DNA of 64,000 bases from the NCBI GenBank assembly GCA_944388765.1, contig CALXKA010000002.1, forward strand, positions 11,509 through 75,508, read 5' to 3'. The position numbers and the translations under genes were made by a program. The notes under the pieces were generated by a model. It ran no database searches, had not been told where the DNA came from, and saw nothing but the letters and a program-made list of their open reading frames with translations. The DNA comes from an uncultured Clostridia bacterium (lineage in GTDB: Bacteria; Bacillota; Clostridia; TANB77; CAG-508). Shown here piece by piece: positions 58,748 through 59,996 of this stretch (position 1 is its first letter; each line of letters starts with the position of its first letter).

Positions 58748-59335
58748 TTATTTTTTATTCTTTTCTTTATTAAACTTGTTTAATACAATTCCAACTGCAT
58801 GAACTATTTTTGTAGAATTTTTATTTGCAACACCTTTTCCCAGAGCTTTTCCTCCTACTGTCAATGCTGCAACTAGGGCACTTAATATGAATTGTAAATT
58901 AAAGTTCAATCCAAATTCTTCTGTAATTTTCATTGATATTAATGCACTTATTGCACCACTTAATACTCCACATATATCTCCAACTACGTCTGCACATATA
59001 TTTGCAACTTTTGGAGCATTTCTAATTAATTTAATTGAACTTTTTGATCCTTTTACTTTTTTTGTAGCTTTTGCGTGAAATTCATTCTCATCTGCTACTG
59101 TTACTGCAACACCTACAATATCAAATCCTATCCCAACTAATATTACTAATAGCAAAATTAAAATTGCTGGTATTAGACTTAAATTTGTTATTCCATTTGA
59201 AGATATGAATGAAAAAACAATTGATAAAATAAATGTTGTAAAAAATATTTTTATAAACCACCCTATATCCGAGTGGTCTTTTTGTTCTTTATTATTTTCT
59301 TTTTTTTCTTTTTGGCTCAGACTTTCTTTGTCCAT
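58748..59335 (-). CDS. Four-TM membrane protein (~21 kDa), OapA-like by size, topology and context (unverified)
   Basis: 195 aa with four hydrophobic segments, Asp-containing TM motifs (GIGFDIVGVAV, ADVVGDICGV) and an AAGGAGG RBS. It lies directly downstream of the structured non-coding region. Confidence 0.6.
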   Translation of the reverse strand: MDKESLSQKEKKENNKEQKDHSDIGWFIKIFFTTFILSIVFSFISSNGITNLSLIPAILILLLVILVGIGFDIVGVAVTVADENEFHAKATKKVKGSKSSIKLIRNAPKVANICADVVGDICGVLSGAISALISMKITEEFGLNFNLQFILSALVAALTVGGKALGKGVANKNSTKIVHAVGIVLNKFNKEKNKK

Positions 59336-59396
59336 TTATTAAAATATTTCCTCCTTATTATGTTTTAATCTATATTATTTCATTATATACGACACT

Positions 59397-59961
59397 AGAT
59401 GGTAAAAGCCTAAGTAAATTTTACAGTTTAGGTCTGGTCGAATTTCTCTATTTTCCACTTAGTATTACTACTAAGCCGTTTCCATTTAAGGAAAATATCT
59501 ACTAATGTAGCCACCAGATCACCACTTAAATCTGTACCTTAATCCCTAGACTTCTATGTTTCTTCCGAAACAAACATTCTAGAAGTTTTCCTTTACATAC
59601 ATTTTTAGTTTTACTAGTCTTTTTTGCAAATGAAATTTCATAATTAAAGTAAAACTAATTTGGCCTAAATCTTTTTTACTTCTGTAAAATTAATCCCAAT
59701 ACATTCACTCGAGACAGGCTACTCTATGTATTTTGTGTCTTGGCACTCAACATAGGTTTAACTTAAAATGAAATACTTTAAGCCTCCACGAACCCAGGGG
59801 ATCACATGTATGCCATTACATATTACCCTAAATTCTTTACTCCCTGAAAGCACACAAAACTGGCATTTCGCGCACAAACAAGAAACTTCAACGATGTGCC
59901 CTTTAGTGGATTTTTAGCCCCACCCTCGTAAAACTTGTATGACTAGAATAATGCACCATCG
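59397..59961 (-). ncRNA. Candidate large structured ncRNA (OLE-like by size and context; identity unverified)
   Basis: About 565 nt with no plausible ORF, visibly GC-richer than its flanks. On the minus strand there are many hairpins, some with GNRA loops: TGTTTC-GGAA-GAAACA nested inside CTTCTA/TAGAAG, CTTAGTA-GTAA-TACTAAG, CTTAAA/TTTAAG, CAGGG/CCCTG and a long-range TCTGGT/ACCAGA pairing. It has its own promoter. Confidence 0.55.
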
Positions 59962-59967
59962 ATATAT

Positions 59968-59996
59968 ATTATACATTGTTTGGAGAAATATTCCAA
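59968..59996 (-). promoter_or_regulatory. Sigma-A-type promoter driving the candidate ncRNA (TTGGAA-17 nt-TATAAT)
   Basis: On the minus strand the -35 is at 59996-59991 and the -10 at 59973-59968. The predicted TSS is near 59961. Confidence 0.55.

Follow-up and report, generated by a model that had tools for sequence, protein, structure and literature searches.

Does the non-coding stretch at positions 59397-59961 of the window (the whole 64,000-nucleotide piece of contig CALXKA010000002.1 analysed here) encode a known RNA, and does the membrane protein gene that follows it on the minus strand belong to the same system? An earlier note on this DNA had pointed out a GC-enriched, highly structured region directly upstream of a gene for a protein with four transmembrane (TM) helices, and had suggested the arrangement of the RNA OLE (ornate, large, extremophilic) and its protein partner OapA, while leaving room for a different or undescribed large non-coding RNA or leader. 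Our analysis shows that the locus is almost certainly ole-oapA, in which an OLE RNA gene of ~565 nucleotides (nt) is followed by the gene for the membrane anchor OapA.

The evidence that settles the identity of the RNA is the match to the Rfam OLE family, RF01071, which covers the full model. When the whole window was scanned against Rfam 15 at gathering thresholds, three matches were returned, namely two tRNAs and OLE. The OLE match runs from 59975 to 59383 on the minus strand, reaches 343.2 bits where the gathering score is 50 (E = 3.5e-97), is untruncated and spans model positions 1-616, with 565 nt from one end of the P1 helix to the other. Thus, the covariance-model search proposed earlier is positive over the entire model, and a different or undescribed large non-coding RNA or leader is excluded by the full OLE match. 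The earlier note placed the ends of the RNA at 59961 and 59397, which agrees with where transcription is predicted to begin and where P1 ends on its 3' side, respectively.

A region lacking a credible open reading frame (ORF) could in principle be a decayed coding sequence, or an undescribed non-coding RNA unrelated to OLE, and nothing beyond the absence of an ORF speaks for either idea. That absence was borne out: only two ORFs of at least 40 amino acids overlap 59397-59961, a 49-residue ORF and the first codons of a 78-residue low-complexity ORF, both on the opposite (plus) strand. The 49-residue ORF, which lies inside the RNA (59768-59917), was considered as a gene and judged spurious, as the conservation here is of the RNA type. 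Given the Rfam E-value, and given that changes among relatives are paired and compensatory rather than codon-like, we discard both ideas outright.

The composition and fold of the region agree with the description made before. Enrichment in GC is real but modest (33.9% in the RNA versus 25.6% in the whole window); in sliding 300-nt windows, the GC fraction is 0.31-0.34 within the RNA and mostly 0.22-0.30 in the flanks, where coding peaks reach up to 0.31. The minus-strand RNA is predicted to fold at -150.9 kcal/mol, with z = -4.9 relative to dinucleotide shuffles, and the stable hairpins noticed earlier were recovered; by the same measure, the plus strand of this region gives z = -3.6. The reported GNRA tetraloops and long-range pairing are likewise present, as GAAA, GUAA and GGAA loops and as the P1, P2 and P3 pairings.

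Relatives of the locus provide a second line of evidence. A scan of a genome collection with the 195-residue protein encoded downstream found 80 loci whose best-matching segments are 64-92% identical to it. Nearly all are in metagenome-assembled genomes (MAGs) of uncultured gut Clostridia, the named ones including Clostridium sp. CAG:440 and Candidatus Merdicola faecigallinarum. In each of the 18 loci that were scanned for it, OLE immediately precedes the homologue and has the same orientation, and 17 of these RNAs are full-length, at 323-365 bits. The window RNA and the 17 relatives were aligned with MAFFT, and 160 base pairs were counted. In this alignment 97.5% of cells are paired, and double substitutions occur in 53 of the 160 pairs, compared with 22.3 +/- 2.5 after column shuffling (0 of 500 shuffles reach 53) and 8-14 when the partner is slid by 1-3 columns. 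The structure was taken from the same 18 sequences, which makes the slid control somewhat favourable; the effect is large all the same, in agreement with the independent Rfam model. The covariation check in homologous loci therefore supports the OLE structure, and about a quarter of the RNA nucleotides are near-invariant across the alignment.

These relatives also bear on whether the window copy might be a relic of OLE that has lost its function and is decaying, its host genome being a reduced one. Such a remnant could explain why P7 is trimmed and the tip of P13 lost, and reduced copies exist among the relatives, one of which has no more of OLE than its 3' quarter, while the distal part of P9 is missing in another. 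A remnant would not be expected to match the full model at 343 bits, or to retain an intact promoter, oapA reading frame and terminator. In addition, species with no more than 64-92% identity between their OapA proteins have the same sequence in the conserved blocks, and the stems carry compensatory changes, which together indicate purifying selection. Finally, an identical OapA recurs in many independent metagenome assemblies: it is listed in 48 blocks of a metagenome-assembly index, from which 22 contigs were read, and the five places examined have the same neighbours and an uncalled gap of ~780 bp at the OLE position, the same gap that gene callers leave here. We regard decay as scarcely credible, and return to a maintained ole-oapA locus.

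How is this locus expressed? The near-consensus promoter described earlier, TTGGAA-17-TATAAT, was located by promoter scan at 59996-59968 on the minus strand. Across the OLE loci, the -10 box is TATAAT in 17 of 18 and TATACT in the remaining one, and lies 8-9 nt before GRUGGUGCA in all 18; a -35-like TTGNNN hexamer stands upstream of it at roughly promoter spacing, again in 18 of 18. The conservation of these boxes suggests that ole has its own promoter in this lineage, a predicted sigma-70-type promoter placed just ahead of the conserved block at the 5' end of ole. A second TATAAT between OLE and oapA (59387-59382) was considered as an internal promoter and set aside; it went unreported by the promoter scan, and its surroundings are common to the closest relatives only. 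No terminator was found between ole and oapA in a sequence scan, and a terminator-like hairpin follows oapA, from which we infer that ole and oapA form a two-gene unit.

This organisation raises the possibility that the RNA acts mainly in cis. It would then be a long 5' leader whose structure governs the translation of oapA or the stability of the transcript, and not a free component of a ribonucleoprotein (RNP). One promoter and one terminator are shared with oapA, with 61 nt from the end of P1 to the oapA start codon and no terminator in between, as a leader would have it. However, OLE in H. halodurans has been shown to be an abundant, protein-bound, membrane-localised RNA, and ole in that species lies in a long polycistronic transcript with many other genes. 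Moreover, a leader would not need the observed degree of conservation, with a quarter of the nucleotides near-invariant and the dimerisation loops kept. A mainly cis-acting leader is thus very improbable, and we favour an OLE RNA that works as part of a particle with OapA.

The protein encoded downstream fits this assignment. The earlier note had described the next gene on the same strand as encoding a 195-residue protein with four TM helices and intramembrane aspartates, and both features stood. Hydropathy peaks lie at residues ~27-45, 58-76, 117-135 and 147-165, and D72, D116 and D120 fall inside hydrophobic segments; the only prolines are at positions 56 and 108. An exhaustive HMMER search yielded 1,138 cluster representatives, 67 of which (36-67% identity) were aligned. 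Invariant in these 67 homologues are D72, D116, G119, D120, G127, K163 and K167. A confident AlphaFold2 model built from the same alignment (pLDDT 90.8, pTM 0.80) places helices at 21-50, 54-80, 107-141 and 147-172.

Sequence and structure comparisons point to the CNNM domain, though below the level of family membership. The Pfam CNNM model (PF01595) scores 17.6 bits, under its cut-off of 28.4, and matches weakly in 43 of the 67 homologues. In a Foldseek search, the six best PDB matches are CNNM-type CorB and CorC proteins, including MtCorB (7M1T, 7M1U) and CorC (7CFF, 7CFG); the E-values are weak (0.005-0.6), with a probability of 0.87-1.00 and a TM-score of up to 0.55 over ~135 residues, and no other fold comes near CorB/CorC in the ranking. 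A PDB sequence search with the protein gave insignificant matches to LolE and LptF only and no OapA chain, and NCBIfam contains no family matching it and no OapA model. In published work, OapA is recognised by its four TM helices, its DxxxD motif, a distant CNNM-like domain that scores lower than in true MpfA proteins, a predicted fold like that of CorB and a gene directly 3' of ole (PMC11332333). Absence of the proline conserved in CNNM domains is a further trait ascribed to OapA. Fernando and Breaker likewise reported sub-threshold CNNM similarity for OapA, and 7M1U was the best structural match reported for the H. halodurans protein (PMC11332333). We conclude that the 195-residue protein is an OapA-type protein, a four-helix, DxxxD-bearing, CNNM-like membrane protein. 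With a full-length OLE model match and an adjacent protein of the published OapA type, the OLE/OapA arrangement first suspected from the DNA letters is upheld.

The architecture of the RNA can be followed helix by helix (Table 1), with names assigned according to the description of Lyon and Breaker 2025 (PMC12265935). The 5' strand of P2 includes a CUAG palindrome near a mapped OapA site (mapping from PMC12265935), and its 3' strand sits between P10 and P11, overlapping the base of P11. P3.1 is formed by GUUUUAC pairing with GUAAAAC at 59608-59614, and P3 by CAUAC pairing with GUAUG at 59596-59600, 12 bp in total. Both are missing from the Rfam structure line, are present in the minimum-free-energy fold of the single sequence, and show compensatory changes in relatives. 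A 12-bp P3 plus P3.1 is the expected length for what has been proposed as a membrane-spanning helix (PMC12265935).

The elements implicated in dimerisation are also kept. In cryo-EM models the A-rich loop of P4 is a dimer contact, and kissing roles have been assigned to the P5.1 and P6.1 loops and to the P9 loop (PMC12265935). All of these loops (P4 CUAAAAAU, UGCCA/UGGCA and the P9 GGCC) are present in the window RNA, and they are invariant or nearly so in the 18 sequences, except for the P9 tip of one relative (L059, see below). The sequence blocks of J4a/5-P5-P6, the k-turn region associated with OapC/bS21, agree with the OLE consensus, a correspondence at the level of the region rather than of exact base pairs.

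Table 1. Predicted and annotated features of the ole-oapA locus, in window coordinates.
Feature	Position	Strand	Description and basis
Thymidylate-kinase gene	60116-60787		next to the A-rich spacer upstream of the ole promoter; Pfam
Predicted -35 hexamer, TTGGAA	59991..59996	-	promoter scan
Predicted -10 hexamer, TATAAT	59968..59973	-	promoter scan; predicted start near 59961
OLE RNA, predicted start to P1 end	59397..59961	-	RF01071 and covariation
P1, 5' strand GAUGGU	59955..59960	-	pairs with ACCAUC at 59398-59403; covariation helix 1
P2, 5' strand UAUUCUAG	59943..59950	-	pairs with CUAGAAUG at 59575-59582; helix 2, invariant
P3 (CAUAC) and P3.1 (GUUUUAC), 5' strands	59928..59941	-	covariation helices 3-4
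P4 hairpin, A-rich loop CUAAAAAU	59905..59925	-	invariant in 18 sequences; helix 5
P5/P5.1 hairpin, loop UGCCA	59840..59885	-	complementary to P6.1 loop; helix 7
P6/P6.1 hairpin, loop UGGCA	59790..59835	-	covariation helices 8-9
P7, 7-bp hairpin	59761..59783	-	shortened
P8 hairpin	59721..59757	-	37 nt, about consensus length; covariation helices 11-12
P9 long arm	59617..59715	-	99 nt, about consensus length; palindromic GGCC loop at 59659-59667
P10 (AAGGAAAACUU) and P11 hairpins	59557..59593	-	covariation helices 15-16
P12-P15 multi-helix domain ('domain 2')	59404..59555	-	helices 17-24, many compensatory changes
P13, reduced, CUAC-AUUA-GUAG	59499..59510	-	model positions 477-499 mostly gapped
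P14.1 hairpin, GUAA tetraloop	59457..59476	-	GUAA or GCAA in 18 of 18
Shine-Dalgarno of oapA, AAGGAGG	59350..59356	-	sequence
oapA	58748..59335	-	195 amino acids, 20.96 kDa, pI 9.6, four TM helices, DVVGD at 116-120
Intrinsic-terminator-like hairpin and U-rich tail (AUUUGAUAUA)	58714..58736	-	10-bp hairpin, ends the ole-oapA unit

Two helices depart from the full-length form. In P7, an 8-nt loop stands in for ~31 positions of the Rfam model (~206-236), so the helix is not of full length; its length differs among relatives as well. The consensus P13 has 8 bp, bulges at one nucleotide and is capped by a GNRA loop; in the window RNA both the loop and the single-nucleotide bulge are gone, and with them the primary OapB site. 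No GNRA loop was found at the P13 position among the 18 aligned relatives. In H. halodurans, where OapB is essential, OapB binding requires the GNRA loop and bulge of P13, and the P14.1 tetraloop is a weak secondary OapB site (PMC7936274). Genes for OapB (YbzG), OapC (YbxF) and bS21 are absent from the 64-kb window, as judged by Pfam scans of nearly all ORFs of at least 90 residues and by inspection of the small intergenic ORFs, a result that says nothing of the rest of the genome.

What might these losses mean? An OLE form called variant 1 has been described that is commonest in the order TANB77, has shorter P7-P9, often lacks the P13 OapB site and occurs in hosts that mostly lack OapB and OapC (PMC11332333). 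Since the absence of the P13 site is a described property of variant 1, it is no argument against OLE membership. With that site missing, the particle would be expected to function without OapB at P13, and it is probably a reduced version of the better known one. We would go one step further only tentatively, and somewhat doubt it ourselves: ole-oapA may be an autonomous two-gene unit lacking the P13 OapB site and most of P7 which, if the genome also lacks oapB and oapC, would amount to a naturally minimised particle of RNA and OapA. If true, such a particle would reveal what the RNP can do without, and it might be easier to reconstitute and to study structurally. The compact, self-promoted ole-oapA unit without an OapB site could serve as a minimal construct.

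Several points count against our assignment, or against carrying over all that it implies. The transcript ends of ole are predictions from sequence only. The protein was set beside H. halodurans OapA by way of its published description rather than by direct alignment. Without the P13 GNRA loop and bulge, parts of the H. halodurans mechanism may not transfer. Lastly, even in the model species OLE has no established biochemical activity, and its passage through the membrane is a proposed model.

With this in mind, what has been learned in Halalkalibacterium halodurans and from two OLE RNAs of Clostridium suggests how the particle may work. The RNA would fold into P1-P15, and two RNAs would dimerise via the A-rich loops of P4, the complementary loops of P5.1 and P6.1 and the palindromic GGCC loop of P9, all of which are intact here. 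OapA dimers would sit close to P2 and P4a and anchor the particle to the membrane (PMC12265935), and the 12-bp P3/P3.1 helix would possibly cross the bilayer. The resulting RNP may aid tolerance of stresses such as alcohols, cold, excess Mg2+ and poor carbon sources, and OapA probably either transports divalent cations or controls a protein that does.

Candidatus Merdicola faecigallinarum is placed in the order TANB77, family CAG-508, and given such relatives the window most likely comes from the same group. The host is thus probably an uncultured, very AT-rich gut member of the Clostridia in TANB77/CAG-508. Two related loci carry unusual OLE copies. In L007 (CAMMLJ010000009.1, 3085-3862), only the 3' quarter of OLE is found (model positions 436-595, 100 bits). 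We considered whether this could be an OLE variant consisting of domain 2 only and rejected the idea: an ORF for an ABC ATPase, cut in its Walker B region, runs into the 3' strand of OLE P2, and the truncation is either a deletion or a MAG assembly chimera. In the OLE of L059 (CAKOXG010000004.1, 3385-3938, 329 bits), ~49 nt of the distal part of P9 are missing, among them the GGCC kissing loop, and P8 is divergent; this copy agrees with variant 1 as published, in which P8 and P9 are shortened. Strains with identical OapA can also differ around the locus. One (L083, 107-1264) has an IS110-type transposase upstream of tmk, and in another (L084, 3718-4901) an rve-type transposase is inserted between oapA and the gene that follows it.

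In the window, that following gene, immediately downstream of oapA, encodes a short-chain dehydrogenase/reductase (SDR; 57882-58655, minus strand). In B. subtilis, dltE encodes an SDR-type protein. Among the genes most often associated with ole, dltE has been listed (PMC12265935). In the surroundings of the locus, 21128-56141 is dense in genes for DNA repair and topology (Mfd, two type IA topoisomerases, AddB, a family-4-type uracil-DNA glycosylase, OGG and a Y-family polymerase), which is consistent with a remark in the literature that ole is found among 'fundamental' genes. The two tRNA genes of the Rfam scan are adjacent (50787-50936, plus strand), with anticodons GCC and GCA as read by eye from the Rfam alignment.

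Elsewhere, the window contains a diversity-generating retroelement at 16487-19912 on the minus strand, with a reverse transcriptase (16487-17563, RVT_1), a bAvd accessory protein (17494-17862) and a target gene (18341-19912) for a 523-residue protein with no Pfam match. Its 150-nt repeats, the template at ~18049-18198 and the variable copy at ~18347-18496, at the 3' end of the target gene, show 84% identity, with template adenines accounting for 22 of the 24 mismatches. On the minus strand, the 426-residue product of 10258-11538 weakly resembles the CRISPR-associated Csx3 domain over residues 327-371, and 11730-12546 holds two overlapping ORFs (147 and 156 residues), the first with an ABC permease domain, which look like a frameshifted or split permease gene. 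An ABC ATPase gene (12539-13378) adjoins these ORFs, and a YhgA-like transposase lies at 13453-14496.

How does the locus compare with what is already described? The OLE class, made up of membrane-associated RNAs of ~600 nt, has been known since 2006, and its hosts are Bacillota, as a rule anaerobes or extremophiles. The TANB77 variant is also described, from a survey of 2,822 Bacillota representatives by Fernando and Breaker in 2024 (PMC11332333), so the feature is not new. OLE is among the largest bacterial non-coding RNAs of unexplained biochemical function, and recent cryo-EM work suggests that it may cross the membrane; to this the window adds one more example from an already surveyed clade, with small practical value.

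Like H. halodurans OapA, the protein is small and basic and has four TM helices, one of which bears DxxxD (D116/D120 in the window protein and D100/D104 in H. halodurans, the latter being the pair targeted by the dominant-negative D100A/D104A mutant PM1). Further likenesses are the conserved lysines after the fourth TM helix, the sub-threshold CNNM similarity, the CorB-like predicted fold and the gene position directly 3' of ole. The CNNM-family Mg2+ transporters MpfA, CorB and CorC share a similar transmembrane fold. Unlike them, the window protein, at 195 residues, has no CBS or CorC/HlyC domains by Pfam, and its CNNM score is below threshold; it also has four TM helices instead of three and a DxxxD motif that is absent from CNNM domains (PMC11332333). 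It is not a member of the CNNM family.

The RNA is like the RF01071 consensus in its conserved blocks, its P4, P5.1, P6.1 and P9 loops, its 12-bp P3/P3.1 and its P12-P15 domain, and at 34% GC it is unusually AT-rich. In contrast to H. halodurans ole, it belongs to a two-gene unit with its own predicted promoter and terminator and is not embedded in a long operon. With variant 1 (PMC11332333) it shares the shortened P7, the lack of the P13-tip OapB site, an oapA gene immediately downstream and a probable gut Clostridia host, whereas its P8 (37 nt) and P9 (99 nt) are about as long as in the consensus. Because of these two helices, the window OLE is intermediate between the 'full-length' and 'variant 1' forms.

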